A stretch of DNA of 64,000 bases from Verrucomicrobiota bacterium (GCA_049510745.1 JBEKYR010000001.1:255920-319919); one strand, 5' to 3'. Shown: positions 40,519 to 63,299, numbered from the stretch's first letter. Notes: generated by a model from the sequence alone, not told the origin. Made by a program: numbers and translations.

Positions 40519-40519
40519 T

Positions 40520-40600
40520 GGTCGGGTGACCATCTCCCGCGCCGCCGGCACGATGACTTTTCCGTCGGAGTTTATGCTGGTCGCCGCGAGGAACCCGACG
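40520..40600 (+). pseudogene. comM: comM internal fragment, codons 326-352; attL-like junction
   Basis: GRVTISRAAGTMTFPSEFMLVAARNPT matches 25907-25987 and stops at ACG. Confidence 0.93.
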
Positions 40601-40819
40601 GCGTAAGCACTTCGACGGCATGATCTTGGAATGACATGCTGATTTGGTGAGGCACCACACTCACACATTAACCCAAAGTCTGCTCTGATTTGATCTCAAC
40701 AGATAATCACTGCTGGCATGGTTAACTGGCATCCATTCCTTTGCATGCAATGCCAACGTCGAACGCGTGGAGCCAGCGCGCAAAAGGTGCATGGATGTCT
40801 TGCGTCTGAAGCTCGTCAG

Positions 40820-42460
40820 CTAAAGCAGGTCGAGGCCTTTTAACTTGATGCTGATTTTTTCGCGGCGGAGGTCCTCAGGAAAACGGATTTGCAGCGTAAA
40901 GGGGCCGGAGACGGCGCCTCCGTCGGCATTGAACAACGGGGCGTTGATCGTAATGGAACGGGTTGACTCGGCTCCTTTGGCGGTGAATTTGCGCTCATTG
41001 GCGTTGCCCATCATCTGCTGCGCCGCGCCTGGGATTTTTACCTGGACATCCAAACGGCGCACGGCCGGCGGCCCTTTGAGTTGCCCGTCAATTCGCAGCA
41101 TGTTGTTCTTATTCACGAGCTTCTTGACAATAAATTTCGCCCCTGGGAGAACGGCCCCAAGATCGAATTCGTTGGTGGATGTTTCGGAAACATTGGTCAG
41201 CGTCATTTCCTTCCACGCGCCGGCGGTGAGAGCGACGGCTTCGGCGTTGAGTTCGTCGATGGCCTGCGCGTCCGGTTGCGGGAGGTGGAGTCGCAATTGG
41301 ATTTGCACAGAATTTTTTTCTTGCGCGCCTCCTTGAAAGGCGCTGAATGAAAAGCCGGTCTCCTCGCCTTCAGTTTCCGCGGCTTCGACGGCGCGGCCCT
41401 TGTCATCCATCGCCTTGAGGATGCGCACGCCGCTCAATGATTGAAGCGTGCGGCCTTGGGGTGGAAAAACTTTGACGGTGACCATTGCGCCCGGCGAGGC
41501 TCCAAATGAATTGCCGTCTTTGAAGTAATCCTTGCCTTCGGGAAAAACATGGATCGTCGTCGTCATAATGCCCTCCGCTTGGGCCACAAAGCCCGCGCCG
41601 CCCTCGGTGAGAGGAATGTCGTCGGCCGATTCACCCTGCCGAGCGAAGGCACGCCGGAGTTTTTTGGATTCCAACGGCGCCTTGATGATCAGACCGCCGA
41701 GTTCGGCGGTGATAACAGTCGGGGTGTCCATCAGCTTCATGTAAGCGTCGAGAGATTCGTCTTTCTTGGAATCGACCGTGAGCCAAGTAGCGTTGTTCTG
41801 CATTCCCGTGAATCCGCTGGAAAGGACCTTGCCGGGAAGCACGAGCCTGAAATCGCTGTTCATCCCGCTCAATTTCCAAGCTGAACGCATGGATTTGAAA
41901 TAGCGTCTCATGCCGGTTTGGGGAGTAAAAGTCACGCGCAGGTGGCCGTTGGTGTCCTGCTCAAAGCGGACGTTGCCAAACATCTCCCCTCCGATCGAGC
42001 TGCGGGGACTCTTCAACATCTCCTCAACGGATGAAAAGGAGGATTTTGTCACGACAGTGACGTTGTCCTTGTTCACCTCGACCTGCTCCTGTTTGTCTGT
42101 ATCGGTGGCAAGTTCGCCAAATTGCTCCTCCCTCATTTCAAGGACTTTCTTTTTTAATTCCTCGTCGCTTAACGAGTTGGTGGCCGCGTTGGTTTGAGAC
42201 GCAGCCTTTTGAATCTCTTCCACATCGCCCGATTCCTCCATAGCCTTCATCTGTTCCATTATGCGCAGTTGCTGTTCCATGGTCTTGCGCGGCTGCGTGG
42301 ACTTGGCTTCGATTTGACAACTGCCATCAGCCTGAATCGTGATGACGGTTTGTTGCTGGCCGGCTTCTTCGTCGAAAAACTGGGCCATTAAGCGGGAATT
42401 CAAGTCCGCCGCGCCGCACGCGACGGCGAGGGTCAATGTCCATCGGAGAAATCGCTTCAT
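40820..42460 (-). CDS. Secreted hypothetical protein
   Basis: Signal peptide; architecture resembles 42485-44065. Confidence 0.8.
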   Translation of the reverse strand: MKRFLRWTLTLAVACGAADLNSRLMAQFFDEEAGQQQTVITIQADGSCQIEAKSTQPRKTMEQQLRIMEQMKAMEESGDVEEIQKAASQTNAATNSLSDEELKKKVLEMREEQFGELATDTDKQEQVEVNKDNVTVVTKSSFSSVEEMLKSPRSSIGGEMFGNVRFEQDTNGHLRVTFTPQTGMRRYFKSMRSAWKLSGMNSDFRLVLPGKVLSSGFTGMQNNATWLTVDSKKDESLDAYMKLMDTPTVITAELGGLIIKAPLESKKLRRAFARQGESADDIPLTEGGAGFVAQAEGIMTTTIHVFPEGKDYFKDGNSFGASPGAMVTVKVFPPQGRTLQSLSGVRILKAMDDKGRAVEAAETEGEETGFSFSAFQGGAQEKNSVQIQLRLHLPQPDAQAIDELNAEAVALTAGAWKEMTLTNVSETSTNEFDLGAVLPGAKFIVKKLVNKNNMLRIDGQLKGPPAVRRLDVQVKIPGAAQQMMGNANERKFTAKGAESTRSITINAPLFNADGGAVSGPFTLQIRFPEDLRREKISIKLKGLDLL

Positions 42461-42484
42461 GTTGGGTTTCCTTTATCTCAATGC

Positions 42485-44065
42485 TTATTGTGTCAACGGA
42501 ATATGTTCCACCAGCACCGGCACGTCCACCGAGGAACCGGAACCGCTGGCGACCACCGCCAGGGATAACGGCGCCCCAGGCGAGCCGGGCACCATCAACT
42601 GGCAGCCGTTGCCTTCGCCCATGCCCATGTTTTGTTGTCCGAGAAAAGTCGGCCAGGGTTTGCCTTGGGCGTCAAAGACCTGAGCATCGACCAGCACGCC
42701 TTTTTTGCCGCTGATTTGAAGCATCAGCATCGTCATGCCGCTTTGCGACATGGCCATTTGGAGGGAGAGCGGCATGCCCATTTCCGCCAGCTTCGCGCTG
42801 TTGATCTTCTTCTCTGAACTATCGAATCTTCCCATGCCTTTGGCAGGGTCCACAATCCAATTGGCCGGAATGGCGTTGGTCATTTTCACCACTTCGGCGC
42901 CGCCGAAATAATGGAGAGCGATCGAACCTTTGATTTTCCCGATTTCCTTGATCTTCCAGTCTGGTGGGCGAAAGGAAAATGAAACGGTGTGTCGCAAATC
43001 GGCGGCGGTGTTGGTATGTTCGGCATCGTCCTCTTCGCTCTCGTTCATGTACATTCTACTGTAAAAAAATGAGTCTCTTTGATTGGCTTCGGTCGGCTTG
43101 AGGTCGTTTCCTTTGGCATCCACCGCCTCGTCAAGGGTCGCCTCGCCCCATTTCTGCGGTTCGAATTCCCGCGGCAAAACGACCGCGCCCACCAGGTTGG
43201 CCGAGTTTTGATTCATTCCGCCCTGGCCGCTCAAGTCCACCGAGCGCGTGATGACCACGCCGTAGGGGATGAACTTGGCGGCGGCAGTGACCTTCGCGGG
43301 GTCAGGTCCTGCGCCCTTGGCGGCGCTTGTGCCGGCGGACAGTTCCGGGAACGGGCACAGTCCAAGGCGGGCCGGCGTGACTGGCGAGATTTTCAGGCCG
43401 CTCGCATCGCAACGGGCCTCGTTCACCGCGCTTAACTGTTGCACGAACTCATCGGCGTCCTTGCACTTGGCGCGCTCGGAAATCCAGAGGGCGCTTTTTC
43501 CGTCGCGGACGCCGTTGCCGGCGGTCACGGTGTTGGGCAGTGTCATGCGAAACTCCACGCGCATCTCATTCTTCTTCTTCTGCATGTCGGCCAAACCGGG
43601 CATGGCCATCATGCCCATATCCTTATCGGGCTTGATTTCGGCGATGCGGGCGATCCCTTCCATGCCGCTGACGGCTTTCACTGCCAAACCGTCTTTACCT
43701 ATTTCGACGGTGAGTTGGTGTGCGCGCCCGTAAGGGCTGGCGAGGAGCGAATTGATGTCTTTGTATTCGACATCAATCACTGTGACCGTGTCGCCTTTGT
43801 CCGTTTTGTCCTGTTTGACGGTGATTTTGAAATCCTTTCCCGGGAAGAACTTTTGCGCCTCGGCTTCAGATACAGGCGGATACGCGATGCCGCCACCCAT
43901 CTCGCCCGACATCGCGGCGAGCGACCCGGCGTCGGCGCCGACGCGCGTTTCGATGCGCACCTTGCCGGAGCCGTCGGGGTTGATGGTCAATTCGTCCTTG
44001 GTCTGAATGCAGCCGGTCAGGCAGATCAGAAGCACCCCTGTTGTCAATGATTTCCACATAATCAA
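42485..44065 (-). CDS. Hypothetical lipoprotein
   Basis: Lipobox LTGC followed by ELTINPDGSGKV. Confidence 0.8.
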   Translation of the reverse strand: MIMWKSLTTGVLLICLTGCIQTKDELTINPDGSGKVRIETRVGADAGSLAAMSGEMGGGIAYPPVSEAEAQKFFPGKDFKITVKQDKTDKGDTVTVIDVEYKDINSLLASPYGRAHQLTVEIGKDGLAVKAVSGMEGIARIAEIKPDKDMGMMAMPGLADMQKKKNEMRVEFRMTLPNTVTAGNGVRDGKSALWISERAKCKDADEFVQQLSAVNEARCDASGLKISPVTPARLGLCPFPELSAGTSAAKGAGPDPAKVTAAAKFIPYGVVITRSVDLSGQGGMNQNSANLVGAVVLPREFEPQKWGEATLDEAVDAKGNDLKPTEANQRDSFFYSRMYMNESEEDDAEHTNTAADLRHTVSFSFRPPDWKIKEIGKIKGSIALHYFGGAEVVKMTNAIPANWIVDPAKGMGRFDSSEKKINSAKLAEMGMPLSLQMAMSQSGMTMLMLQISGKKGVLVDAQVFDAQGKPWPTFLGQQNMGMGEGNGCQLMVPGSPGAPLSLAVVASGSGSSVDVPVLVEHIPLTQ

Positions 44066-44074
44066 ATCCTTGCG

Positions 44075-47000
44075 TTATTGGCTACTTGCATTGCGCATTT
44101 TCTTGTTGATGTCAAGGCGTAGTTGCCGGGCCTCCGCGCCCCGAAGCCCCTGCAAAGCCTGCAAAAGCTTGCGCAACTCCGATTCGTCCTTCCGAGCAGT
44201 CATGATTTTCCGAAGCGCCGGCAGATATTTGGCGTCCTGGCTCAAAGCGATGCCTGCCATGATCGCGTCGTCGATTTCGTTCTCCTCTTTTGAGTTTGCC
44301 TCCCCGGCGTCCGCAACCAGGCGATCCAAGCCGTCGAACTGCCCGTATTGCGCCAGGAGCAGCGCAAAGGGGATCCTTTCGGTAGGTTTGGCGGCGGCAA
44401 GCCACTTTCTCGCCGGTTCGAGAAAGGCGGGCTTGCCTTCCAACACCGTCAATGGCCGGCTATCGGCCTGGTTAAACGATGTTTCCAAGCTGCCGCCATG
44501 GTGGCTTTCAAATTCAAATCCACCGGAGGACTTCTCCAAATCGGCCGCTTGGCGGACTTGCGGATCAAGCAAGGCCAGTGCAGCCGCAGTGGCGACCCCC
44601 AGGTTGGTTTCGGAAAGCAGCGGGCCAATCTTTGTTTCGAGCGCCGGCCGCTCTTTCGCCCGCCGTGCCAGCGATTGCACGGCCACTCGACGCACCCATT
44701 CATTGGGGTCGGTGATGGCCTTGTCAAAGATCGCCACGTCTTGTTCCGAATCGGAGCGCAGCCCCAGAGCATAGACTGCCGCCGCGCGCCAGGCCGCGTT
44801 CGTGGATTCCACCAACGCGAGCGAGACCGCCCGGGCGCGGGCATCGGCTGTCCACAAATTCCACCCGCGCGGAACTCGCTGAGGAATGCCGTCAATGATC
44901 TCGAATCCACCCTCAAAATCTCCGCCCGAGACGTAGCCCGCCAAGAAGTCGAGCGATCTGTTCAAAACATCGCCGAAGGCCATTTCGACCGCGGATTTGA
45001 ATCGATCCGGCTCCAACAAGTAATCCGCGGCCGCTGGCGCGGCCCGTCCGCTTTGCCGCGCAGCCATGGAGAAAAGCACCGGCGAGGCGCACAATTTGTC
45101 AAGGACAGGCCGGCCCTCAGGCCACGGAAGTTTTTCGAGAACGAGCCGGAGGGCGAGCGTATCCTGCTGATGCCGGGCCGTTTGAAGTTCGGGCTTTTCC
45201 AAGGCGGCGAGCAATTGGGGCAAGTCCGCTTTGCCGTCGCCAGTGGCGAAAACAGCGGCCGCTACCCGCAGCCGCGGTTTTGGTTCGAGGCGTTGGAGCA
45301 GGCCAGCGTGCCACGAGGCCATTTGGCTGGCGCTGGCCACAGGTTTATTTGTTTTCAGCGTCGGGGATTGCATCCCCGTGGAGACGGGAACTGGCGGATC
45401 GAGAATCTTCAGGACGATATCTGCGGCAGAAGCGCGAGTTTCGCCGTCTTCGTCGGAGAGCAAGGGCGCGACCAGTTCGGCGGCCAGTTTGACCGGCTGC
45501 TGACGCAACGCTTCGGCTGCGCTGCGGCGCAAGCGCGCCTCAGGAGCGGCCAGGGCTTTGACGAGGAGCGGTTTCCAATTGGCATCGCTCTGCTTCTCAG
45601 GATTGATCCCGTGCTTGGCCAGCGCGCTGAGAACGGCCTCTTTCTCGGCCACAGTGCCGGCATTGAAAATCTCGGTAACCGTGTCGGAGGTTTCTTTCGT
45701 TTCTGAAGCGAGCATCATTTGGACGGTGGCGGCCCGAAGGCTGGGCAGGCGCTTGCCCAGCGCGGCCAGTTGCTTGTCGTCCGGCGAATCGTTGAGCTTT
45801 TCCAGCGTGGCCAGCGCGTTTTGCACCACAAAACCATCGGGGTCGCCAAGCAGCTTCGTGACGTCATCGGCGAGTTCATTGGCGCCCAATTTGCCCGCGG
45901 CTTCGGTCGCCGCGGCGCGCACACGCCAGCGCGGGTCGGCCAGGCACCGCTTGAGGCCGGTGGAAACATCATCTGGAACAGAGGAAGCGCGCGCCGAAAA
46001 GCGGCCGTCGCCGGAAAGTCCTTCCTCCAACGCGGCGATGGCCGTGCAAGCGACCACTTCATTGGGATCATCCAGGACAGTGAGCAACTGTTTGAGGGCA
46101 TCGGGGCTTTTGGAGTGGCCCAGGGCCTGAGCCGCAGTCATGCGCAGGTTGCTGTCGGAGGACTGCAACAATGCGGCCATGGCCGGAACAGCATCATGGC
46201 CTCCAATGCTTGACAGCGCATGGACAGCGCTCTCCGCCACGAGTGAATCGGCATCATGGGCCAACTCGCTCAAAGCAGGCAGCGCCTCCGCGCCCGCGCG
46301 GCCTAAATGTTCCGCTGCCGCCTGCCGTTCGAGGCTCTTTCCGCGCGCCAGGGTCTTGCGCACGCCGCCGGTCCGCTGCTCCAGCAAATCGGAAACAAGG
46401 ATTGCCCAACGGACGTCTTCGAGCAGGCCGAGGGCGCGCTGGTCGCCGCTTTTTTCTGCCCGCCGGAGGGCCTCATGCACCACCGGCAACGCGGCCGTTC
46501 CAGCGCCGACCAGTGCCGACATGGCTTCGGTGCGCCGGACAGGATCATCGCCGCGCAATGTTTCCAATTCGGCCTTGATCGAATTCTCAGCCGAAGGATC
46601 CAATCGGGGCCGAGGGATCGCAGTGGGAAGCCGGCCTGTCTCCCTCCACCATTTCCGTAACGCCGCGACGGAATTGGTCAACTCATCCGGCCCCTGCCAC
46701 GGATCAATCGCCATCCCATCCGGCGCCAGGCGTTGCAGCAAATCGGCGGCGGCGACGCGGACGCCCAAATAAGGATGCTGGATCGCGTCGATCAGGACAG
46801 GCACGACGGCTTCCCGCTGGCCCATAAGAATGTTGGCGGCAGCGGCGCGATCCGCGGGGTTGGCCTCGCCCATCATTTCTACCAACTGGCGCAGGTCATT
46901 GGTGGTCAGATCGTCGGCTGAGGCCTTCCTGGCATAGTCGGCATATTTGTCCGCCGGGGCCGTTCCTTCCCACTCGCCGGCTTTGGCCCGGCGGCGGCCT

Positions 47001-47404
47001 TCGGCCAGGAACGCAAGCACTTCGGGAACAGAAACAAATCCGGTGTGGCGCCCGACAATTTTCCCGTCGCCGGTCAACAGCGCCAGCGCGGGAATGGCCT
47101 CCACCGCGAAGCTGGCGGCGAGTTTTTGATTCGAATCGACGTCCACGTCCACCAAGTGCAGGAGGCCGGCTTGCTGAAGGAATTCCGGCGCGGAAAGCGT
47201 ATTGGCTTTGAGTTTCTTGCAGGGGCCGCACCATTCCGCGCTGAAAATCAGCAGGACGAGCGTTTGGTCCGCCGCCGCAGCCTCGGAGGCCGCTCGCAAC
47301 GTGGAATGGGTCACGGGCTGGCTGGCAGGTTCGGCCCCAGCCAGCGCGAAGGCCGCGAGCAGCATGACTGTGCCGGCCTTGAACATGGAACCTTTTGGCG
47401 TCAT
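44075..47404 (-). CDS. Thioredoxin plus HEAT-repeat protein
   Basis: FSAEWCGPCK; multiple D..VR..AA.AL repeats. Confidence 0.87.
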   Translation of the reverse strand: MTPKGSMFKAGTVMLLAAFALAGAEPASQPVTHSTLRAASEAAAADQTLVLLIFSAEWCGPCKKLKANTLSAPEFLQQAGLLHLVDVDVDSNQKLAASFAVEAIPALALLTGDGKIVGRHTGFVSVPEVLAFLAEGRRRAKAGEWEGTAPADKYADYARKASADDLTTNDLRQLVEMMGEANPADRAAAANILMGQREAVVPVLIDAIQHPYLGVRVAAADLLQRLAPDGMAIDPWQGPDELTNSVAALRKWWRETGRLPTAIPRPRLDPSAENSIKAELETLRGDDPVRRTEAMSALVGAGTAALPVVHEALRRAEKSGDQRALGLLEDVRWAILVSDLLEQRTGGVRKTLARGKSLERQAAAEHLGRAGAEALPALSELAHDADSLVAESAVHALSSIGGHDAVPAMAALLQSSDSNLRMTAAQALGHSKSPDALKQLLTVLDDPNEVVACTAIAALEEGLSGDGRFSARASSVPDDVSTGLKRCLADPRWRVRAAATEAAGKLGANELADDVTKLLGDPDGFVVQNALATLEKLNDSPDDKQLAALGKRLPSLRAATVQMMLASETKETSDTVTEIFNAGTVAEKEAVLSALAKHGINPEKQSDANWKPLLVKALAAPEARLRRSAAEALRQQPVKLAAELVAPLLSDEDGETRASAADIVLKILDPPVPVSTGMQSPTLKTNKPVASASQMASWHAGLLQRLEPKPRLRVAAAVFATGDGKADLPQLLAALEKPELQTARHQQDTLALRLVLEKLPWPEGRPVLDKLCASPVLFSMAARQSGRAAPAAADYLLEPDRFKSAVEMAFGDVLNRSLDFLAGYVSGGDFEGGFEIIDGIPQRVPRGWNLWTADARARAVSLALVESTNAAWRAAAVYALGLRSDSEQDVAIFDKAITDPNEWVRRVAVQSLARRAKERPALETKIGPLLSETNLGVATAAALALLDPQVRQAADLEKSSGGFEFESHHGGSLETSFNQADSRPLTVLEGKPAFLEPARKWLAAAKPTERIPFALLLAQYGQFDGLDRLVADAGEANSKEENEIDDAIMAGIALSQDAKYLPALRKIMTARKDESELRKLLQALQGLRGAEARQLRLDINKKMRNASSQ

Positions 47405-47414
47405 CGGCGGTGGA

Positions 47415-48062
47415 TCATTGGAGAAGCGCGTAAGCCAGGATATTGACGTTCACCTTCTGGCTGTTTTTGATTTCGTTGCCGCCGCAACAACAGCAGCCGT
47501 GCATGGTGGCGGTGTCGTTGAGGCCGTCCTGCGAATAGATCAGCACGATTTTCCCAGCAATGGTCAGGCCCAGCAGCTTGGCGTCTCCGCCATGGCTCAT
47601 GTCAAGGCGATCAACGATGAAAACAGTGTGGAAAATCGGGTGGTCCATCGGGACGTCGGCCAATTTGCGGTCCGGGAAAATGGTTTCAATCTCATGCGTG
47701 AACGAATCGCCCCATTCCTTGCTGCTGCATCCGGCGCTGGCCAGCAGGAACCCGCCTTTTTCCAGGTAGAGCTTCAGGTTTTTGCGTTCATCGTCTGTCA
47801 AAGTGAAGGCCCCCTCGCCCGTCATCACGGCGAAAGGAAAGTGGAAGACCTCGCTCTCGCCCAGCTTCACTGGCTTGAACTTGCGGGACGTGTTGATGCT
47901 CGTTTCACCGGCGACGGTGGAGAGGAATTCCTCGCTGAAACAGACCGAACTTTTGGTGCCGGCGTAAATCAGGTTCGCGCATTCGATCTCTTCGCCGGCG
48001 GGGACGCGGAGGCCGGGCCACAGCAGCAGAACTGTCAATAGCATGAATTTTTTCATGGTCAC
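47415..48062 (-). CDS. DUF4159-like protein
   Basis: FPFAVMTGEG, YLEKGGFL, DHPIF, VNILAYAL. Confidence 0.82.
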   Translation of the reverse strand: MTMKKFMLLTVLLLWPGLRVPAGEEIECANLIYAGTKSSVCFSEEFLSTVAGETSINTSRKFKPVKLGESEVFHFPFAVMTGEGAFTLTDDERKNLKLYLEKGGFLLASAGCSSKEWGDSFTHEIETIFPDRKLADVPMDHPIFHTVFIVDRLDMSHGGDAKLLGLTIAGKIVLIYSQDGLNDTATMHGCCCCGGNEIKNSQKVNVNILAYALLQ

Positions 48063-50767
48063 TTTCCTTCCTTCTCAGATTCCGCGATCACGCGGAAGTA
48101 TTCGCCCACAAGATCGCGGTAACGGAGTGGAAATTTGGCTTCAGGTTGAAGGCGAACGCGGCCTGGCGCTTCCGGTGGCGGCAAGCCTGCATCGCTAGCG
48201 TCCCCATCCATGGCAGTGCTGGTTCGGCTGTTGCTCGATCCCGTTTCCCCCTGTCCGCCCGCCTGTTCGCCGGCCAATTGGGCGTTCGGGCCATAAAGGG
48301 CGAGAGATTCGTTGAAAAGGCCGTAGCCGTCACGCCCGTTCTCCCCGTTGCCGGCTCCCAACGCGGAAAGAATCTGCTCGAGCGAATTGCCTAAACCCGG
48401 CTTGCACAATTTGGGTTGAAAGCGCGCGGTCAAACTTTGCCTGCCCGAACCACTCGCGTTACATTCGCCAATCAACTCCCTCATCTTTTCGGCGGCAAGC
48501 TTGGCCAGCGCATGGCCGTTGACCAGGTCAGGGATGTCCAGCGCCTCGGTCGCGCCGGCGAGGTATTTTTCGATTTTTGCGGCCGCGACGTCGGAAAGAA
48601 ATTTATTCACATCTCTGCGCAGCGGATAGTAGTCAGGCTCATTGGGCACTTCGGCCAGCAACTGCGGCAATTGTTCCAGCAAGTCGTGCAGGCCCTCCTG
48701 CACACGCTGCTGCTGGTGCGCCAGTTCCTGCACTTCCATTTGTTCCATGCGCGTCAGGGAATCGGAGGCGTTGTCAAATCGCTCCAACATTTGCGCCAGC
48801 GCGGCTTCTTGCTGGGCCAGCTTGACGAATGCGTCCGCCGCCGCGACCAATCGCGCGACGGCGGCGATTTGCTCGGCGGGCTGGCCGACTTGCTCGCGTT
48901 CGGCTTCGGCCATCGCGTTCAATTGGTCGCTGAGCTTCTTCATCGCTTCCGGGTTGGGCACGCCGCTGCCTAGCGCCTTGGCAAGCTCCGATTTCGCTTC
49001 GGCCAGTTGGGTCAGTTCCGCGGCCAGCGCGGCGTGAAAAGACTCATCCACGTCGAACATCGGCGGTTCCTTCAGCAGCTTCTTGAGCGCCTGTTCATAT
49101 TCGTCAAGCTGTTTGGCCAGCGCGTGGGCCGCGTCGGTGGCGGACGGGTCGGACTGGGCTGCTTTGGAGGCGGCATCACGCGCTCGTTCCGCCAGGCGCC
49201 GGGTCCAGGCGTCGAGTTTGAAGTAGGATTCAAAGAGAGCTTTGCGCGCGGCGGCCTGGCGCAAAATCGCATTGTATTGTTCCTCCGAAATAATTTGCAG
49301 GCGGAACGGACGGCTGAAGACCACGTTCGGACCTTTGGGATAATTGTCGGCTGCCTCAAAATAATAATCGATCACATCGCCGGGCCGCACGCCGAGCCGC
49401 GCAAGGTCGAAGGCAGCGGCGGATTCGACCGATTTGGGACCTCCTTTGAGCGCCAGGCTCATTTTGAAAGGACGCTCGATGGAACGATTCAGCCCGCGCA
49501 GCCACACCACGCGCGTCACGCCGTAATCATCGGTCGCCTGCACGCGCACGGGAACACGGGTGGACGGCGTCGCCACGGCATCCTTGCCCGGCTCCACGAC
49601 AAATAAATGCGGCGGGCGATCGGGCAGAATATTCAAGCGCCCGCGCTTTGGTTCGGCGCAACTGAGGCCGCTGACGTCACGAATCGAAAGATTAAACGCC
49701 ACCGCCTCCGTCAGGTTGAAACCGCCGGCCACAACCGTCGGTTCTTTGTCCGGTTGAAGGTTGACCTCGACCTGTTTTCCACCGAGGACAGGAGTCAGCT
49801 CCAGGACGCCGGATTTCAGGGGCCGATTGCTCGTGACACGGAAATTGACGCGCGTGTCTTCGGGCAGCGCCTGGGCCTCCTCGGCCAGTTTGCCGGTATG
49901 GGCAGGTTTGCCGGTGTAGTCGGGAAAAATCATGGTGGCTTCGACCTGCGTTATCTGAGGAGTGAACTGAATTTGCACTGGGAAGCGCCGGCTGCGCGCC
50001 TGGCCGTCGGTCACATAATACTGGGCCGGTTCGCGGAGACTGGCCAGAGTTTGGAAGAAGGATTTATCCGGCGCAAGAAACATGATGGCGCGCGTTTCGC
50101 CGGCGCTGGTCTTTGTCACGAGCCAAAGTTTGTCCGCCGGACGGCCGCTGGCCGTGGCGTGAATTTCGACTTGGCCTCCGAAGAGCACGGAGGCCGCTCC
50201 AGGAGTCACCGTGATTTTCAAGCGGCTGAAAGGCGGATGATCGCCGCGCGCGTCGAGGAAACGGGGCAGGACGGCTTGAAGCAAATCATTTTCCGCCAGG
50301 AACAAAGCCGCCCAAGCCAGCGCGACGCACGCCAGCAGCAACCCGGCACGCCGGACGCCACCACCCTCCATTGATCCGACCGACACTTTTGCGGCTGATT
50401 GCCGGCCCAATTCAACGGCTTCGCGACGCAGGAATTCCTGCACGGCGCTTGCGCCGGTCTTGTGCGCAAGATCGACCGCGTTGGTCAAACGGTTGCCGAG
50501 GGAAGGGTCGGTGCATTCCAGAAGCCAGGCCAGGAATGGATCTGAGAACCGGCGCCAGAAAAAAATGACAGCGCCCAGCACAGCCAGGGCGGTCACAAGC
50601 AGGAGCCAGGGCGCGGCCACGCGGCATGGTGCCGGCAAATCGAGCGCCGCGTCCGTGATGACCGCCCCAAGCGAGAGCAACGCCAGCGCCGCCAGCAGGA
50701 CAAGCCCCGTGCGCAAAGCCAGCCATCTGGCCAGCCGCGAACGGATATGGCCAAGCACGCTTGTCAC
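48059..50767 (-). CDS. Membrane protein with Ig-like and coiled-coil regions (DUF4175-like)
   Basis: GTG start overlaps the upstream TGA; ATDDYGV; YRDLVGEYFR. Confidence 0.78.
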   Translation of the reverse strand: MTSVLGHIRSRLARWLALRTGLVLLAALALLSLGAVITDAALDLPAPCRVAAPWLLLVTALAVLGAVIFFWRRFSDPFLAWLLECTDPSLGNRLTNAVDLAHKTGASAVQEFLRREAVELGRQSAAKVSVGSMEGGGVRRAGLLLACVALAWAALFLAENDLLQAVLPRFLDARGDHPPFSRLKITVTPGAASVLFGGQVEIHATASGRPADKLWLVTKTSAGETRAIMFLAPDKSFFQTLASLREPAQYYVTDGQARSRRFPVQIQFTPQITQVEATMIFPDYTGKPAHTGKLAEEAQALPEDTRVNFRVTSNRPLKSGVLELTPVLGGKQVEVNLQPDKEPTVVAGGFNLTEAVAFNLSIRDVSGLSCAEPKRGRLNILPDRPPHLFVVEPGKDAVATPSTRVPVRVQATDDYGVTRVVWLRGLNRSIERPFKMSLALKGGPKSVESAAAFDLARLGVRPGDVIDYYFEAADNYPKGPNVVFSRPFRLQIISEEQYNAILRQAAARKALFESYFKLDAWTRRLAERARDAASKAAQSDPSATDAAHALAKQLDEYEQALKKLLKEPPMFDVDESFHAALAAELTQLAEAKSELAKALGSGVPNPEAMKKLSDQLNAMAEAEREQVGQPAEQIAAVARLVAAADAFVKLAQQEAALAQMLERFDNASDSLTRMEQMEVQELAHQQQRVQEGLHDLLEQLPQLLAEVPNEPDYYPLRRDVNKFLSDVAAAKIEKYLAGATEALDIPDLVNGHALAKLAAEKMRELIGECNASGSGRQSLTARFQPKLCKPGLGNSLEQILSALGAGNGENGRDGYGLFNESLALYGPNAQLAGEQAGGQGETGSSNSRTSTAMDGDASDAGLPPPEAPGRVRLQPEAKFPLRYRDLVGEYFRVIAESEKEGK

Positions 50768-52935
50768 AGCAACCCTTCCTGCCGGCGCCACCACCACTCG
50801 GTGCCGAGCAAAACCAACAGGGCTGTGAGCGTCCACCATCGGTCCCACAGAGGCCGCTGGCGATGCAACAATTCACGCCGCGCTTCCCAATGTTTGACAA
50901 CATCGGCCATCCGCGGAACGTCCGAACCTCCGAGGACCGCCCCGCCGGAGACTTCCGCCAGCTTGCGCATCGTTTCAGGGTCGGCGCTCAACTCGCGGTT
51001 TTCGACCGAGGCGCTTACCACTTCGATGCTCTGCGTCAGTTCCGGAGGGTTTCCGACGTTGTTTGTCAGCGACACACGGTAGGTTCCAGGGGGAAATGGA
51101 CCGGCTTGGGCGACGAACGATTCGCCACGCGGGCGGGGTTCGACCTCGGTGGATTTGCCGCCGCCGGAAATGATCAAGCGCGGTTGGTAAACAGCGCGAT
51201 CCAGGTGGCGCGTAGAAATGAGGAATTGCATGGGCTGTTCGCTCGTATAGTAACGGCGCGCGCTGGAAAGAGCCACGTCGGAGCCTGGCAGGAACTGGCT
51301 GCCGCCCAAAAGCCATTGCAGGAGGGAGACCCAAAAGCGCTCATAAGCGGCCTCGCTCTCCTCCTGGCCCGTTTCGCGGAAGGCCCACCGCCAAAGACCG
51401 CCGGCATTGAGGCTCAGGGTCTTGCCCTGGCCGTAACGCTGGTAGGCCAGCAGCACGGGACCATCCTGCTCCGCCGAGCCGGCCAAAACAATGGCCAGCG
51501 GTTTTTCACCGAGCGTGATGGCGGCTTGGTCCAGCGCCGGAAGGCGGTCGAGCAATTCTTCCACGGTGCCCGCCGCGCCCAAGTCAAATATAGGATTATC
51601 CCGTCCCGCCTCGGTCGGGCGGAGCTTGACGGAGGAGGAAACACCGCTGCCCCAGGCGACCGGCTCGAACTTGGCCAGCGCGGGGAAACGCCCGCCATAG
51701 GACTTGCCGCGGGCGAACACCAGGCTGCCTCCTTTTTTGGAGACGAAATCCGTCAACAGGCCCTCGGTGTTATTGTCGAAAAACGCGTCGGCGTCGCGGC
51801 CCAGGACGATGACATCAAAACTGTCCATGTCGTCGGCTGTGCGCGGAAAAAGGTCCGATTCCAGGCGCGCTTCCCCGCCGGGGGCGGAAAGGACGGCGAC
51901 ATAGCGCTGGGCGTTGAGGCGATACACAGCGGTCAGATCGACTTTTGGGTTGCGCTTGAGGCATTGCACCAGAAACTTGGTGTCCCAGGAGGGCTGGCCT
52001 TCGGCCACCAGCACGCGCACCTTCTTGCCGACGGAGCGGAGGAAAATCGCGCGTTCATTATTGGCGGTGTCCGATTCCTCCGGCTGCGGTGGCACTCGAA
52101 AAACGTAGCGTTGTTCGCCCTGTTCCGGCGCAATGACACGCCTGGAGAAACGGGCCGCGCCGTTGGTATCGGGCGTGACTTCTTTGGAATCGATGACTTT
52201 GTCGTCCTTGAGGAGATCCACTTTGAAACTGCGGTTGGGATAGCCAGCCTGGTGCAACGTCGCTGTCAATTCGACTTCCGCGCCGCTAAAGGCGAGCGCT
52301 TCGGCGGAGGCGGTCTCGATCCACAAATCGTGGCGCGAAACCGGCCCGCCAAGTGTCCAGGTCCAGAGCGGAACGGAACGGGCCAAAGCCAGTTCCGCCG
52401 CGTCCAAGGCGCCGGGAGAAGTGGCCTGGCCGTCGGACGCCAGCAGAACACCCGCCTGCGCCTGGGCATCGCCCAATTCAGACACCACACTCATGAGAGC
52501 GCGGCCGAGATCAGTCGCGTCACCGCGCGCCTCCGTGTCCGACAGCCGGGACAACTCGGCCGGTTGCGCTTCCCGGTCGAACCGGCGGACATCCAGCTCG
52601 AAATCCTTGCTCAACGCGGCCAGGGTGGAAGCATTGGTGACGACCCGCAAGGCGGCGCCAAGGCGTGAATCGCCGGCGGCGGCGTCATGGGTGGCCATGC
52701 TGGCGGAAGTGTCAAACAGAATGACGAGTTTGGGCTTGCCTGTCTTTTCGCGCGGGAGCAACGCCTGGGGATTGAGCATGATCCAGAGCAATCCGCCGAG
52801 GATCAGCGCCCGCAACGCCACCGTGCTGCCGCCTTGTTTCTCGCGCCGCCATCGGAACGCCGCCAAAGCGAACAGGCATAACGCGATGACCGCAATCCAG
52901 CGCCCGTTCCATGGAGGCAGGCAAAGCCAGTTCAT
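50764..52935 (-). CDS. vWA plus glutamine-amidotransferase-like membrane protein
   Basis: DTSASM MIDAS, LASDG, YGQGK, EWWWRR. Confidence 0.85.
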   Translation of the reverse strand: MNWLCLPPWNGRWIAVIALCLFALAAFRWRREKQGGSTVALRALILGGLLWIMLNPQALLPREKTGKPKLVILFDTSASMATHDAAAGDSRLGAALRVVTNASTLAALSKDFELDVRRFDREAQPAELSRLSDTEARGDATDLGRALMSVVSELGDAQAQAGVLLASDGQATSPGALDAAELALARSVPLWTWTLGGPVSRHDLWIETASAEALAFSGAEVELTATLHQAGYPNRSFKVDLLKDDKVIDSKEVTPDTNGAARFSRRVIAPEQGEQRYVFRVPPQPEESDTANNERAIFLRSVGKKVRVLVAEGQPSWDTKFLVQCLKRNPKVDLTAVYRLNAQRYVAVLSAPGGEARLESDLFPRTADDMDSFDVIVLGRDADAFFDNNTEGLLTDFVSKKGGSLVFARGKSYGGRFPALAKFEPVAWGSGVSSSVKLRPTEAGRDNPIFDLGAAGTVEELLDRLPALDQAAITLGEKPLAIVLAGSAEQDGPVLLAYQRYGQGKTLSLNAGGLWRWAFRETGQEESEAAYERFWVSLLQWLLGGSQFLPGSDVALSSARRYYTSEQPMQFLISTRHLDRAVYQPRLIISGGGKSTEVEPRPRGESFVAQAGPFPPGTYRVSLTNNVGNPPELTQSIEVVSASVENRELSADPETMRKLAEVSGGAVLGGSDVPRMADVVKHWEARRELLHRQRPLWDRWWTLTALLVLLGTEWWWRRQEGLL

Positions 52936-55025
52936 CGCACGGCCTCCAGATTTCTTTCCCGCGCGGCCATTTTACCCGGAAGGCTCCCGCGCGAAGTTCG
53001 AAGCGGCCGACGCCAAAACGCCAGCAAGAGCATCTCCAAACCCAGCAACGCCGCCGCCGCGCCGGCCAGCAGAGGCCAGAGTTGGCGCGTTTTGCCGGCG
53101 AGCAATAAATCCTCCTCGTCCTGCGCGACCGTGACGGTGGAGCGGCCGCCCGCCTTGAGGCTTTCCAAGGCAATCGGCCGGGTGTCGCTCTCGCGCGGGT
53201 CAACGTTGACGATGCCGTAAGAAACAATCGTTTCGCCTTGTTTGATCGGATAAGCGCCTGGTAGTTGCGCACTGGGCAACGCCAGACGCGTCGTGCGGCC
53301 GCTGGCCATGACCTGGGCCGCAAAAGGATGGCCTTGCGGATCGGTTACGGTCACAGCGGTTTCGCCTGCGGACGCGACATTGAGCACCCAGGCCGAACCG
53401 GGAGTGACAGCCTGTTCATCCGAGGCGCGTCGGAGTTTGCGCAGCAATTCATGAATCATGGCCGGGAACATCGGACTGCCAATGAAATCACTGCCGTCCG
53501 GCGTAAATGGAAGATTGGCGAAGACGGCGGATCCCTGTCCCATGGCGCCAAGCGTCAACGCGGGAGAGCCGTCGGGATAGGAAAGCAGCACTTCGTCGCG
53601 ACGGCTCTCCACCAGTTCAACCTGATAATGCCGGCGAAAACGCAACGCGCCGAGGTCCTCAGCCTCGGTGTCGGCAAAGAGTTTCGCGTGGCCGGCCGCC
53701 ACAGCATCGCCCGTCTCTGAATTAACCGTGTGCCGTAGATGAAACGGCGGATCAAGCGCGGGCGAGGCCAGATCCGGCGCGGTCGGCCCGTCCAGAAACA
53801 CCATCAGATGCGCGCCTTCCTTGACTCGACGGGCCATAATGTCGAGGGCTTCCTGGCTTGGAAGAGCGGGGGCCACCAGCACAAACACGTCCGATGTTTC
53901 CAAAACGCCGCGATCCGCGTCCTGAGTGCGTCGCCGGATCAGCGTGAGACCCGGCGCGGCTTCGGGCGATGGAACCAAGGCGCGGCTGATGTAAAAAGCG
54001 GCGCTTTGCGGGTCGGATTCATCGGCGTCGCTGACCAAAAGAATGCGCAGGGCCTGGCTGACGTGAACCAGCAGCCAACGGGTGTTGTCCTCGATCAGAT
54101 CGTCCGGTTCGAGCGAAAGCTTGGCGGCGAAGGAGCCTGGATGCGGGACGGAGATGTTGAAAGCGGCCTCGGTGGTGCCAAAGGCCGGGACCTTCACGCG
54201 GGTTTCGCGGGTGAATTCCCCCAATTCGAGCCGGACGGTTTCTTCGCGGGGGCGCGGCGTGCAATTGAGAATGGCGCCTGTGATTTCAAGCGGTTCGCCC
54301 ATGACCGGTTCGGATGGCGAGAGATGGGCGGCGGTGATGGCCACGTTGTCAACCGCTTGTTGCGTCACGGGACGGAGGCGGCAAACCACACCGCCCGGCA
54401 ATTCGGGGACGCCCTGCCAGTTGGACTTTTGGAAATCGCTGAAAACGTAAATCGTGCCCGCGCCGCCAAGCATTTTGGCGGCCAAAGCCAGCGCGGCGCC
54501 GGGATCGCCGTTTTCATAAGTCGCCTGTGTTTTGACCAATTCTTCGTGCAGCGCGGGGATGTTGCGCGAAAGGGCCGGCAGAAGCGGACGCGGCGTGGCG
54601 CCTTCGAGAATAACAGCGGCCTCGGAACCGGAATCCAGCCCGCGCAAAATGTCAGCCGCTTCGGCCTGAGCGCGGGCGAAAAGAGGCACACCTTGCTGAA
54701 CCGCGCGCATTGACAGGGAAGCGTCAATGATAAGCACGACGCGTTTGGCGGCCTCGGCACCGAGCGCCGCCCCCGCGGGCTTGAGAAAGGGACGGGAAAA
54801 CAGGAGCACCAATGCCAGAACGGCCAGACAGCGAATAGCCAGCAACAGGATGGTGCGCAGGCGATGAACAGACTGCTGGCCAGCGCAGGCCTCCAGCAGG
54901 AACTGAAAGGGCGGGAAGGCAATGCGGCGAGGCCGGGCGCGCGTCAGGAAGTGGATCAGCACCGGCAACCCAACCGCCGCCAGCCCGGCCAGCATCCAGG
55001 GATTTGCAAAAGCAGGCCAGTTCAT
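52932..55025 (-). CDS. BatA-domain/vWA protein
   Basis: FANPWML...PVLIHFL, IIDASLSM, FSDFQ. Confidence 0.88.
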   Translation of the reverse strand: MNWPAFANPWMLAGLAAVGLPVLIHFLTRARPRRIAFPPFQFLLEACAGQQSVHRLRTILLLAIRCLAVLALVLLFSRPFLKPAGAALGAEAAKRVVLIIDASLSMRAVQQGVPLFARAQAEAADILRGLDSGSEAAVILEGATPRPLLPALSRNIPALHEELVKTQATYENGDPGAALALAAKMLGGAGTIYVFSDFQKSNWQGVPELPGGVVCRLRPVTQQAVDNVAITAAHLSPSEPVMGEPLEITGAILNCTPRPREETVRLELGEFTRETRVKVPAFGTTEAAFNISVPHPGSFAAKLSLEPDDLIEDNTRWLLVHVSQALRILLVSDADESDPQSAAFYISRALVPSPEAAPGLTLIRRRTQDADRGVLETSDVFVLVAPALPSQEALDIMARRVKEGAHLMVFLDGPTAPDLASPALDPPFHLRHTVNSETGDAVAAGHAKLFADTEAEDLGALRFRRHYQVELVESRRDEVLLSYPDGSPALTLGAMGQGSAVFANLPFTPDGSDFIGSPMFPAMIHELLRKLRRASDEQAVTPGSAWVLNVASAGETAVTVTDPQGHPFAAQVMASGRTTRLALPSAQLPGAYPIKQGETIVSYGIVNVDPRESDTRPIALESLKAGGRSTVTVAQDEEDLLLAGKTRQLWPLLAGAAAALLGLEMLLLAFWRRPLRTSRGSLPGKMAARERNLEAVR

Positions 55026-55927
55026 CGTGTATTCTCGCGGGCCAAAAAGCAGTTCCGCAGAAAGCGGCAGGGATTATCGGACGTTCTCGCCAGATACCAA
55101 TCACTGCCGCGCGCCTGACAGTTGGACTTCATTTCGGTCAGAAAGCGGTCGAAACGACGTCGATAAAGCGACCGGACGACGTCAGGTTCGGCATTGAACC
55201 AGCCCGATCCCTCCGTCTCGAGAAACCGCGCCGAAACCACCTCCGGCAATTCCAGTTCCTCCGGATGCACAATTTGAAACAGCATCACGTCAAAGCGGGA
55301 GCGCCGGAAAAGATCGACGGCTTTCCAGAAGGCAGCGTCGGCGTCCAGGAAATCGCTAAAAACCGCCAGCACACCACGGCGTTTGATGCGGGCAAACACC
55401 TGCTGGAGGCAGGCCCCCAAATCCGTTCGGCCCTGGGCACGGGCGCGCTCCAGGTTGTCCAATACGCGATTCATCTGCGCCCAGGAAGCGGCGGCCGGCA
55501 GATGGCTGTGCAATTGGTCGTCAGCCAGAGAAAGCCCCACTTCATCCCCCTCGCGCAGGACGAGGTAGCCCATGGCGGCGGCCAGGCGTGCGGCGTGTTC
55601 AAGTTTGGAATGAGTGGTAATGGTGGCTCCGGAGAATTCCATCGAACCGCTTTTGTCCACGACCAGATAAGTGAGCAAATTGCGCTCGGCGTCATAGAGG
55701 CGCACATAGTGGCGATCGGTGCGGGCGAAGACTTTCCAGTCCACCAGCCGGATGTCATCACCCGGAGAATACTCGCGGTAATCAGCAAATTCAACCGCCG
55801 TTCCTCGGAAGTGGGATTTGTGGGGGCCGGCGAAAGTGCCCTCGGCCGCCCCCCGGGGTGTCAAACGAACCTGGCCCAGCGCTTCCATCGCCGCGATGTC
55901 CAGGAAGCGATGTCGCAAAGTCGGCAC
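55022..55927 (-). CDS. DUF58 protein
   Basis: EFADYREYSPGDDIRLVDWK, DKSGSM, SDF. Confidence 0.93.
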   Translation of the reverse strand: MPTLRHRFLDIAAMEALGQVRLTPRGAAEGTFAGPHKSHFRGTAVEFADYREYSPGDDIRLVDWKVFARTDRHYVRLYDAERNLLTYLVVDKSGSMEFSGATITTHSKLEHAARLAAAMGYLVLREGDEVGLSLADDQLHSHLPAAASWAQMNRVLDNLERARAQGRTDLGACLQQVFARIKRRGVLAVFSDFLDADAAFWKAVDLFRRSRFDVMLFQIVHPEELELPEVVSARFLETEGSGWFNAEPDVVRSLYRRRFDRFLTEMKSNCQARGSDWYLARTSDNPCRFLRNCFLARENTR

Positions 55928-55932
55928 AAGCT

Positions 55933-56949
55933 TCAGCGCGCGGCGGCGGGTTCGCGGACGGTTTCGAGCAAATGTCTGACAATCGCGTCGGACTCGATGC
56001 CTTCTCCCAGCGCGTTGTAGTTGGGGATAATCCGGTGGCGCAGGACGGGGCCGGCCATGCGCTGCAGGTCGCTGTTCTCCGGTGAGGGACGCCCATCAAG
56101 AAGCGCGCTGGCCTTGGCGGCGGTGACCAGGTGTTGCGTCGCGCGCGGCCCCGCCCCCCAGGCCACGTAGCGCCGCACGTAATCATCCGCCTCACCGGTC
56201 TTGGGCCGGCTCGCGGTGGTGAGCGCGACGGCGTGTTCGAGCACTGGGCGCGAAACGGGCATTTGGTCCACAATCTCAATGAACTTGCGAAAGTCCTCCT
56301 TTTTTGCCAGCGGCGCCAGGCCGCTGGATTGCGCCCGAATCGAACGACCGGCAATTTCCACTTCGTCGGCGCGCGCGGGATAATCAACGTGGATGCTGAA
56401 CATGAAGCGATCCAATTGCGCTTCCGGGAGCGGATAAGTGCCCTCCTGCTCAATCGGGTTTTGCGTCGCCACGACGATGAACGGCGGTTCCAAGCGGTAA
56501 GTCTTGCCGTTGACGGTGACGGCCAATTCCTGCATCGCCTCCAGCAGCGCGGCTTGGGTTTTGGGCGGCGTCCGGTTGATTTCGTCTGCCAGAATCAGAT
56601 TGGCGAAAACCGGCCCGCGATGGAACACAAGATCGCGGCGGCGTCCCGATTCGTCGCTCTGCAAGATCTCGGTGCCGGTGATATCGGCGGGCATGAGGTC
56701 CGGGGTGAATTGTATGCGGCGGAAATCCCATCCGAGCAAATCGGCCAGCGCCTTAACCATCATGGTCTTGGCCAATCCGGGGACGCCAATGACCAGCATG
56801 TGGCCGCCGGAGAGAAGGCCAGTCAGAAGCAGGCGGACGACTTCCTGTTGGCCGATGAGCACACCGGCCATTTGTTTTTGGAGGGCTTGGCAACATTCAC
56901 GCAGGCGGGCCACGTCCGCTCCAGCGTCTTTGATTTCGTTCGGGTTCAT
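55933..56949 (-). CDS. moxR: MoxR family AAA+ ATPase
   Basis: GVPGLAKT, RIQFTPDLMPADI, DEINRTPPKTQ, TQNPIEQEGTYPLPEAQLDRF. Confidence 0.95.
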   Translation of the reverse strand: MNPNEIKDAGADVARLRECCQALQKQMAGVLIGQQEVVRLLLTGLLSGGHMLVIGVPGLAKTMMVKALADLLGWDFRRIQFTPDLMPADITGTEILQSDESGRRRDLVFHRGPVFANLILADEINRTPPKTQAALLEAMQELAVTVNGKTYRLEPPFIVVATQNPIEQEGTYPLPEAQLDRFMFSIHVDYPARADEVEIAGRSIRAQSSGLAPLAKKEDFRKFIEIVDQMPVSRPVLEHAVALTTASRPKTGEADDYVRRYVAWGAGPRATQHLVTAAKASALLDGRPSPENSDLQRMAGPVLRHRIIPNYNALGEGIESDAIVRHLLETVREPAAAR

Positions 56950-57122
56950 ACCTCGTCTTGGGATACAGTTCTAACAAACCTTGTAGTCCCTTTGTCGGCC
57001 ACTGTCAATGATAGTCCGCGCGTGCGAATAGGGAAATTCAGATTCCCAGAACTATGCAGGCAATGCCGACATGATCGTTCCATCGCTCAATCAACGGGCG
57101 CCTCAGCAGGACCAGAAGGCCG

Positions 57123-57662
57123 TTAAAAGTCGCCCATCCGCTTGACGTTTGCCGGGCCAACTTCGAGGAACTTTTCAATTCCCTTCCGAAAAAGGGCAGT
57201 GGGCTGACGCTGACCGGTCTCCCAGCCCCAAAGGGTTTTGACGCTGACCCCCAGTTCTCTGGCGCATTCCTTCCGGTTTTTCCTCAATTCAATGCGTCGT
57301 TTTGTGATTCCTTGCCCAAGCGTCAACGGGCCTATCCGTGCTAAAATGGCAACGAATGGGGTTTCGTTGCCTTTGGGGCCTCCGAGCGTCGGATTGGTGA
57401 ACGGATCGCACCCTAAAAACTTCACCAAACGGGGTTGATTGGCCCACGTCGGATAGACCTTGTCCCTCTCCCACAAGCTTAGGGTCAGTTGGCTAACTCT
57501 CAGCCGCCGAGCAGCTTCCGACTGGCGGATTCCTAAACTGAAACGTTGCTTTCTCAGGTGTTCTCCGATAGTCTTGGGCTGCTTTGAAACAGGAAAACTG
57601 CGAGTCCAGACGGGGGAAATGTCCTGCCTTTCCACGTTCACAGTCCTTTCACAAAAAGGCAA
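57123..57662 (-). CDS. Double XRE-HTH protein abutting the attR-like junction
   Basis: Two HTH motifs (QSEAARRLRVSQLTLSLWE; ECARELGVSVKTLWGWE); nearest start inside the island is TTG 57662. Confidence 0.75.
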   Translation of the reverse strand: MPFCERTVNVERQDISPVWTRSFPVSKQPKTIGEHLRKQRFSLGIRQSEAARRLRVSQLTLSLWERDKVYPTWANQPRLVKFLGCDPFTNPTLGGPKGNETPFVAILARIGPLTLGQGITKRRIELRKNRKECARELGVSVKTLWGWETGQRQPTALFRKGIEKFLEVGPANVKRMGDF

Positions 57663-57670
57663 CGTCGCGC

Positions 57671-57745
57671 ACGCCGGACGGCAAAATTCCTGGCGAATCG
57701 CGCAGTTCGCCGCGCGAAATCCAGTACCGCCAGTTGTGGACGTGA
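57671..57745 (+). pseudogene. comM: comM 3' remnant from codon 352; attR-like junction; two internal deletions
   Basis: TPDGKIPGESRSSPREIQ|YR|QLWT* matches 25985-26038 and the comM C-terminus. Confidence 0.9.
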
Positions 57746-63262: not shown

Positions 63263-63299
63263 ATTCCCGTAAACGGGTTAGTCCCGCATAATCGCATAT

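Follow-up and report, generated by a model that had tools for sequence, protein, structure and literature searches.

A decayed extra comM copy split at Thr352 around a 17-kb MoxR island, probably a fixed serine-recombinase-type element without its recombinase, in a Verrucomicrobiota bacterium

Introduction

In staphylococci, staphylococcal cassette chromosome (SCC) and pseudo-SCC composite islands occupy rlmH (orfX) and are moved by the Ccr large serine recombinases (LSRs); their units stack in tandem inside this conserved gene, some lack a recombinase and depend on one in trans, and their cargo is unrelated to mobility. The gene comM is the site of the AbaR-type resistance islands of Acinetobacter baumannii, which are Tn7-like transposons with a target-site duplication. 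As to LSRs, the published account of their target genes already includes the ComM/YifB gene family: the magnesium chelatase/ATP-dependent protease (ComM/YifB-type) gene is given there as the target of 12.4% of predicted site-specific LSRs, and competence genes as enriched among LSR targets (Durrant et al. 2022, PMC10083194). Genomic islands of Dehalococcoides that are specific for ssrA, and that have a serine recombinase, have also been outlined (PMC3146451). Here we describe a stretch of 64,000 nucleotides from a Verrucomicrobiota bacterium (GCA_049510745.1, JBEKYR010000001.1:255920-319919), hereafter the window, in which an extra copy of comM is split around a 17-kb island with a MoxR operon. 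We consider it probable, at roughly 65%, that this segment (40600–57670) is a fixed, recombinase-less element of LSR type in a decayed extra comM copy.

The island resembles the AbaR islands in that comM is a hotspot for large islands, but it lies at a serine-recombinase crossover with a 2-bp core and has no target-site duplication. SCC and pseudo-SCC islands may be the closest functional analogue for the stacked, partly recombinase-less units that we find in relatives of this bacterium, with which they share tandem stacking at one site in a conserved gene, the recombinase-less state of some units, and cargo other than mobility genes; the target gene and the phylum are different, every unit has a terminal helix-turn-helix (HTH) gene, and some units start with a replacement comM 3′ end. 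When set beside the LSR elements as they are presented in PMC10083194, the family described here has the same target gene family, a 2-bp core, a quasi-palindromic attP and, in two relatives, an LSR gene at one element end; the element in the window differs in that it lacks an LSR, its left arm is of another kind and degenerate, and the split gene is a decayed extra copy. The Dehalococcoides islands, in the outline of PMC3146451, are likewise serine-recombinase islands with metabolic operons at one conserved single-copy gene, although their target is the transfer-messenger RNA gene. A literature search on comM with serine recombinase or integrase returned no paper on such elements in Verrucomicrobiota, the term "comM" mostly matching unrelated words.

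Results

Two comM relics meet at the Thr352 codon

Genomes are denoted here by handles. G000 is the window's own genome (5.6 Mb, an assembly that is 94% complete), and the other G handles are related genomes. The features that define the break, all on the + strand, are the following.

40520–40600, +: left comM relic (B arm), residues ~326–352, the last codon being Thr352 ACG
40598–40599, +: predicted AC crossover dinucleotide of the left junction (J3), from the attB/attL/attR alignment of G000, G012, G017, G031, and G033
57671–57745, +: right comM relic (B′ arm), with the AC core at 57671–57672, residues 352–369, then YRQLWT and a stop codon
24926/24932–26458, +: intact comM, 510 or 508 amino acids, with ChlI, Mg_chelatase, and Mg_chelatase_C domains; attachment (att) codon at 25985–25987

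The left relic begins right after the stop codon of a 690-amino acid open reading frame (ORF; 38446–40518) and translates as GRVTISRAAGTMTFPSEFMLVAARNPT, followed by alanine and a stop codon. It matched the intact ComM in the window with 83% identity over 29 amino acids (tblastn, E = 1.2e-9) and positions 132–162 of the Pfam Mg_chelatase family with 22.7 bits (cut-off 20.3), and the two DNAs are 74% identical (25907–25990 compared with 40520–40603). The right relic, which translates as TPDGKIPGESRSSPREIQYRQLWT up to its stop codon, matched the intact ComM with a tblastn E value of 1.5e-6 within the window, and the DNA for its residues 352–369 is 80% identical by blastn (25985–26038 compared with 57671–57724). 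Its tail, YRQLWT, is the ComM C terminus including the natural stop codon; residues ~370–497 are gone, deleted at an ATCCAG microhomology together with 12 further nucleotides. Because the right relic keeps the ComM stop codon, a complete 3′ end must once have followed attR.

The two relics meet at one ACG codon (40598–40600 and 57671–57673). This codon corresponds to 25985–25987 of the intact gene, where the protein reads ...FMLVAAMNPTPDGKMPGESRSSPREIQNY..., and encodes Thr352 when counted from the second Met (24932), the start conserved among relatives, or Thr354 when counted from 24926. The relics align in order and in frame to the ComM/YifB family and to the host's own comM, as fragments and not as a functional gene. 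Their shared orientation, contiguity at a single codon, and significant matches indicate that they are real. Thus, a preliminary description of this DNA, which had reported a comM copy split at Thr352 around a 17-kb MoxR island, is confirmed by tblastn, Pfam, and DNA alignment. The shared core of ACG that it gave was not borne out: the shared bases are AC (2 bp), and the G is found only on the comM side. The intact comM sits 14.6 kb upstream of the relics; the split gene is therefore a decayed extra copy and the host is not comM-deficient.

The Thr352 codon is the att site of an element family

All 31 related genomes that were searched, G000 included, hold comM, and many carry extra pieces of it. 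In G012, comM residues 2–354 and 354–510 are split by 59 kb. A 500-amino acid ORF with Resolvase and Recombinase domains adjoins the comM 5′ piece (attL) and is followed by TraG/TrwB-like, Replic_Relax, primase, and ArdC genes, which mark the insert as an integrative and conjugative element (ICE). G033 has the same layout, with an LSR by attL, and the two LSRs are 89.5% identical; the LSR ORFs beside attL in these genomes are 430–500 amino acids long with both domains, and the best NCBIfam similarities of the G012 protein are to CcrB/CcrC, below cut-off. Alignment of the junctions gave an attB of ...ATGAAYCCR-AC-GCCNGAYGG..., an attL of ...AACCCG-AC-ACGTTGCGTTGCCTTTTTGTGAG in G012 and ...AATCCG-AC-AGGTTTCGTTGCCTTTTTGTGAG in G033, and an attR of ...TCACAAAAAGGCAACRTSGCGC-AC-GCC.... 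AC is the sole sequence common to attB, attL, and attR in G012, G017, G031, and G033, and in G012 and G033 the arms P and P′ form an inverted repeat centered on AC, which is the design of an LSR attP. Judged by these alignments, the AC of the comM Thr352 codon is the crossover dinucleotide of a family of LSR elements. The proposal that the break reflects a serine-recombinase crossover is upheld by G012 and G033, where this AC is likewise the breakpoint in comM and attL adjoins an LSR gene.

The right end of the family is conserved and consists of a DicA-like HTH gene that reads inward and the arm CAAAAAGGCAACRTSGCGC-AC, which joins comM at the same base. Scanning for P arms in one genome per species identified 44 loci, mostly in Limisphaerales/Verrucomicrobiota metagenome-assembled genomes (MAGs), and a metagenome scan with the window's own 24-nt arm identified 57 more P arms, which were classed by manual reading of rows. 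The sequences that follow P-AC are as follows.

Genome loci, long comM 3′ part: 17 of 44
Genome loci, conserved non-comM arm, here called X1: 8 of 44
Genome loci, P′-like arm with (A/G)TTGCC at +8: 6 of 44
Genome loci, short comM relic: 4 of 44
Genome loci, other verrucomicrobial sequence: 4 of 44
Genome loci, other phyla, probably chance: 5 of 44
Metagenome arms, comM: about 36 of 57
Metagenome arms, X1 class: 9 of 57
Metagenome arms, P′-type (attP-like): 5 of 57
Metagenome arms, other: 7 of 57

Automatic classification of the same 57 arms gave 31 comM, 4 P′-like, 1 X1, and 21 other. Internally deleted comM parts like that of the window were present at loci L088/L099, L117, L122/L127, and L132.

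In some relatives the units form arrays. In G031, comM-AC is followed by an X1 arm and three consecutive X1...HTH-P units of 6.1, 9.1, and 4.7 kb without an LSR, which carry a SIS/mannitol-dehydrogenase protein, a subtilase, and a hybrid histidine kinase. G033 combines an LSR unit, which bears a type I restriction-modification system, with a subsequent X1 unit that encodes a kinase and a hemerythrin. As a separate observation, the distal 16 kb of the 59-kb insert of G012 (contig C1, ~1514800–1531200; L011/L012) starts with noncanonical sequence after P-AC, terminates in its own HTH-P arm, has no LSR, and carries kinases, extracytoplasmic function (ECF) sigma factors, and a 1998-amino acid fn3 protein; in this it parallels the window island. 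In metagenome contig L086, a comM 3′ start follows each of two P arms spaced by just 548 nt, pointing to very small repeated HTH-P units.

The right junction is canonical and the left junction is degenerate

The ends of the island itself are made up as follows.

57123–57641, −: double-HTH (XRE/DicA-like) gene, 172 amino acids, the conserved terminal gene of the comM Thr352 element family
57650–57670, +: P arm of the att site (CACAAAAAGGCAACGTCGCGC), the sole copy in the window
40600–40819, +: noncoding left end of the island, a putative diverged X1-type cassette end with its core at 40618–40645

The 172-amino acid HTH gene is intact, and its product is 50–74% identical to those of the genes at attR in G002, G017, G012, and G015. 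Positions 57650–57672 are a perfect P arm plus AC, which agrees with the family consensus wherever that is conserved. The junction has the same design as attR in G017, G002, and G012, and it also corresponds to the 17 genome loci with a long comM 3′ part. Homology of the operon region to G011 ends at 57028, so 57029–57670 can be taken as the element-specific right end. With an inward XRE-type HTH gene, a P arm, and AC, the window thus has the right end of a recombinase-less cassette, and by its sequence this junction is a canonical attR of the comM Thr352 LSR family.

Each terminal HTH gene region also contains a hairpin, AAAAAGGCAACG-(8–12 nt)-CGTTGCCTTT, ~310 nt from the P arm (window, ~57340–57375; L009, ~9729; L010, ~3817; L011, ~5126; L012, ~1489; L019, ~6051; L079, 7852–7881). 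The P/P′ motif recurs in the hairpin arms at a shorter spacing, and the structure could be an accessory recombinase site or a plain terminator. A second exact CAAAAAGGCAAC in G000 (C1:58909) was set aside as chance: it lies in a coding region, and the pattern gave 33 matches versus 52 in the reversed control.

The left side is less regular. After ...AACCCG-AC the window continues with GGCGTAAGCACTTCGACGGCATGATCTTGGAATGACATGCTGATTT. In relatives (G031, G033, and the MAG loci), the X1 arm consists of AC, ~12 variable nucleotides, and then GGTCAGTTGCATGAACTTGTGATTGCAT. Alignment of the left end of the island with eight X1 arms revealed a gap-free 28-nt block at 40618–40645 that matches the consensus at 22 of 28 positions. 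When the 28-mer consensus was scanned on both strands over 11.2 million positions of G000, only this site had at least 21 matches, and with a 38-mer consensus it was one of four sites with at least 24. The block has the right orientation and starts 19 nt past AC, versus 21 nt in true X1 arms. A single P arm and a single X1-like block are present in the window, and these bracket the island in the orientation seen in relatives.

Several features of this side weigh against an intact element end. A P′ arm of the GTTGCCTTTTTGTGA type is absent from 40600 onward, and with it the P/P′ inverted repeat. The 18 nt next to the left AC match neither P′ nor X1 nor any other known arm, and the GGTCAGTT part of X1 has no match at the window's left end. 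Since these core-proximal nucleotides are without a match, the left attL is not expected to work; the site appears to be degenerate or to have been altered by a later event at the core. Positions 40600–40819 have no DNA homologue among 30 relatives, and the second copy of comM residues ~326–352 would need an origin beyond LSR chemistry alone. Hence, of the earlier assignment of the two relic junctions as attL and attR, the attR is textbook, but the attL stands only in part, with no P′ arm and just a diverged X1 remnant.

Two other ideas about the left end were rejected. Homology of its inner side to the inner junction of G012 (AAGCTGTAAGACC...) gave a local score of 26, compared with 23.2 ± 3.2 for shuffled sequences. 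The X1 block as a promoter for the HTH gene across the attP junction had no sigma-70 match; a sigma-70 consensus scan found none at the L079 junction or at 40400–41000 of the window, with a consensus that may not suit the phylum.

The MoxR operon is probably cargo

Between the two ends lies a single operon.

40820–56949, −: nine-gene MoxR/DUF58/BatA-VWA/DUF4159/thioredoxin-HEAT operon, presumed cargo

Its nine packed ORFs include MoxR AAA_3, DUF58, BatA/VWA, 723-amino acid, 929-amino acid, and DUF4159 ORFs, and the remainder a thioredoxin+HEAT ORF of 1109 amino acids and ORFs of 526 and 546 amino acids. The domain matches (AAA_3, 1.9e-62; DUF58, 3.2e-45; BatA, 6.9e-17, plus VWA_2) are those of a MoxR–vWA (Bat-like) operon. 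The nine-gene operon named in the preliminary description is thus present, but its status as cargo is put in doubt by its ordinary chromosomal context in G014. Cargo is nevertheless the probable reading, though unproven. Outside G000, homologues of o546 were found in G014 and in just 3 of the 300 genomes that were sampled from the order, and at the DNA level the operon is absent from both same-genus genomes. G011 shares 6.75 kb of it at 88.3% nucleotide identity; five other matched stretches of G000 and G011 are 74–85% identical, with RuvB at 85%. The cassettes of the comM Thr352 family in G031 and G033 carry metabolic and signaling, non-mobility cargo.

Other observations count against cargo. 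G014 has the same nine genes in the same order (54–90% amino acid identity) amid ordinary chromosomal genes (PEPCK and others), and no P arm, X1, HTH, or comM piece was found in the operon flanks examined there. In G011 (L017/L018; G011:C42, 230000–257384) the operon is cut inside the 929-amino acid gene beside a TrwC relaxase region and small ORFs, and it lies 3.6 kb (with a multihaem cytochrome) from homologues of HK1-HK2, the two histidine kinase genes that follow comM in G000. MoxR stands beside the terminal HTH gene at none of the 44 genome loci. Finally, the G+C content of the island is 0.55–0.64, the same as that of its flanks, with no step in G+C or skew at either junction.

The strongest rival explanation accepts the att scars as real but takes the MoxR operon to be chromosomal DNA that was there beforehand; deletions or recombinase-mediated rearrangements in a larger array of elements at comM would have fused the left scar and the HTH-P end onto it. 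This reading would account for the chromosomal operon of G014 and for the small amount of element-specific DNA, just 220 nt on the left and 640 nt on the right. The distance to HK1-HK2, 3.6 kb in G011 versus 27 kb in G000, where they lie just past comM, shows that the region underwent reshuffling; next to the core the left arm is noncanonical, and the window contains at least four comM remnants with microhomology deletions. Yet a breakpoint exactly at AC and an X1-like block at the right distance would then both be coincidental, the operon is missing from both same-genus genomes and from 297 of the 300 sampled genomes of the order, and its identity to G011 exceeds the baseline. We therefore regard a resident operon as unlikely, though it retains appreciable weight.

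An empty site could not be reconstructed, since upstream homology ends at the start of HlyD in G011 and G001; HlyD-MFS(-OEP) is ~80% identical in G011:C37 and G001:C10. For the 180-amino acid and 690-amino acid ORFs that precede the left relic, no DNA homologue was found in G001, G002, G006, G017, or G011.

The island lacks a recombinase

Pfam searches and tblastn with four LSRs found no LSR or LSR remnant in the window, and no homologue of the G012/G033 LSR was found in the G000 assembly. Two LSR-like ORFs occur in G000, on contigs C10 and C49; both are distant and unrelated. The element had been proposed to have lost its recombinase or to borrow one: the island is indeed without a recombinase, none of this family was found in the assembly, and the element may have borrowed one. 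The predicted attP junction did not materialize, either beside any of the 44 + 57 P arms or as a joint in contigs of four metagenomes. In contigs of the peat metagenomes X2, X5, X6, and X7, which cannot show rare forms, there was neither a joint skipping 40601–57670 nor a back-joint. When at least 31 nt were required on each side of a junction, J3 was bridged in X5, X6, and X7 with no differences among the pieces listed, and J4 was not bridged among them; J4 is bridged by metagenome contig L094, with 824 of 824 positions identical.

An island that is still mobilizable, excising and integrating when a co-resident or incoming ICE supplies an LSR of the G012/G033 type, is improbable on these data. 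In its favor, the P arm keeps all conserved positions of the family consensus, the HTH gene is intact, cassettes that share this right end but have no LSR are common and form arrays, and the two LSR-like ORFs on C10 and C49 might be set on the same side. Opposed to this are the lack of a cognate LSR in the assembly, the degenerate inner left arm, junctions that recur unchanged, without an alternative joint, in contigs of three independent samples, and the absence of the predicted attP junction beside 101 P arms. As its inner left arm is degenerate and the genome has no cognate LSR, the island is most likely immobile now.

The possibility that two ComM-like stretches flank the operon by chance can be dismissed: short as the relics are (27 and 18+6 residues), their E values within the window, the Pfam match above cut-off, their exact contiguity at the codon that is the family-wide att core, and the canonical P arm and HTH gene adjoining one of them refute it.

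Further comM remnants surround the intact gene

The window contains additional pieces of comM and of an element end.

26539–26940, −: truncated paralogue of the terminal HTH gene, a 133-amino acid ORF, 114 nt past the intact comM stop codon
37198–37718, +: third comM remnant, MLARVLSAAV (the N-terminal ten residues) fused to residues ~346–510
19795–19857, 22119–22284, 22835–23098, 23636–23848, and 24216–24356: five comM N-terminal fragments, upstream of the intact comM

In the intact comM, the 5′ part resembles G017 (84.9% nucleotide identity) and G001 (84.5%) most closely; for the 3′ part the nearest is G014 (84.8%), with G017 and G001 at only ~76%. By these identities, the 3′ third differs in ancestry from the 5′ part. 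In a sliding-window mosaic the shift falls near columns 945–1035, around the att codon but too blurred to be assigned to Thr352 itself, and another G014-like patch, at columns 630–800, points to general mosaicism. Of 15 sites at which the consensus of G001, G017, and G006 differs from G014, the left relic follows the consensus at 11, G014 at 3, and neither at 1, and the intact comM follows the consensus at 5 and G014 at 9; the right relic, with 3 native-like versus 4 G014-like informative sites, has too few to discriminate. These counts, though small, would fit two steps, in which the island split the resident comM and a working gene, its 3′ third of other ancestry, was later re-formed upstream. 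The route may have been homology-facilitated repair or the capture of units, such as those of G017 and L039, whose first part is a comM 3′ end.

The 3′ part of the remnant at 37198–37718 is 84% identical in nucleotides to the intact 3′ end and 85% to G014, and the remnant is an internal deletion of a once longer copy. The HTH paralogue at 26539–26940 is 86% identical in nucleotides to 57217–57376 and is a remnant of an older element end; a unit of the form comM stop, ~110 nt, HTH, P arm, comM 3′ part is whole in L039. The five N-terminal fragments cover ~residues 2–70, one of them with residues ~190–212, and such fragments are likewise scattered in relatives. In G031, an LSR gene adjoins comM at ~residue 27, which together with the fragments suggests a second serine-recombinase att site near the comM 5′ end. 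At the far end of the window (62000–64000), which is the end of contig C1, G+C content drops to 0.47–0.53, and ORFs of 412 and 127 amino acids there have no Pfam match.

Discussion

The junctions described here suggest a sequence of events for the recombinase-less element of the window. Its point of entry would be the AC of the Thr352 codon in a comM gene, where the element later became fixed. On the right, HTH gene, P arm, AC, and comM 3′ part are preserved; on the left, comM 5′ part and AC lead into what is probably a degenerate version of the X1 end typical of recombinase-less Limisphaerales cassettes. We infer that the recombinase had to be supplied in trans, for example by an ICE-borne LSR such as those of G012 and G033. 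The split copy would then have decayed, its 5′ part being lost up to residue ~325 and its 3′ part internally deleted, while the cell kept the working comM upstream.

A broader and more speculative reading, which we consider rather unlikely, is that the comM Thr352 codon of Limisphaerales is an integron-like accretion platform. One ICE-borne LSR would capture, stack, and perhaps reshuffle recombinase-less cassettes in trans, each ending in a small HTH gene plus P arm and having at its start either an X1 arm or a replacement 3′ end of comM, and the 17-kb MoxR island would be one such cassette. If so, the comM 3′ ends in the window (the intact gene and those at 37.2 kb and 57.7 kb) would record successive captures that kept or restored comM.

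Taken alone, the window represents ordinary biology, a fixed island and pseudogene debris by an intact comM, and the cassette arrays in relatives are the more interesting lead. What the locus provides is a large, housekeeping-looking operon bracketed by serine-recombinase scars in an uncultured peat verrucomicrobium, together with a defined att site, comM Thr352 with its AC core and its P, P′, and X1 arms. If the stacking of HTH-ended cassettes holds, it would be a Gram-negative, environmental counterpart to the SCC-type composite islands and would help to explain why ComM-type genes are the commonest LSR target.

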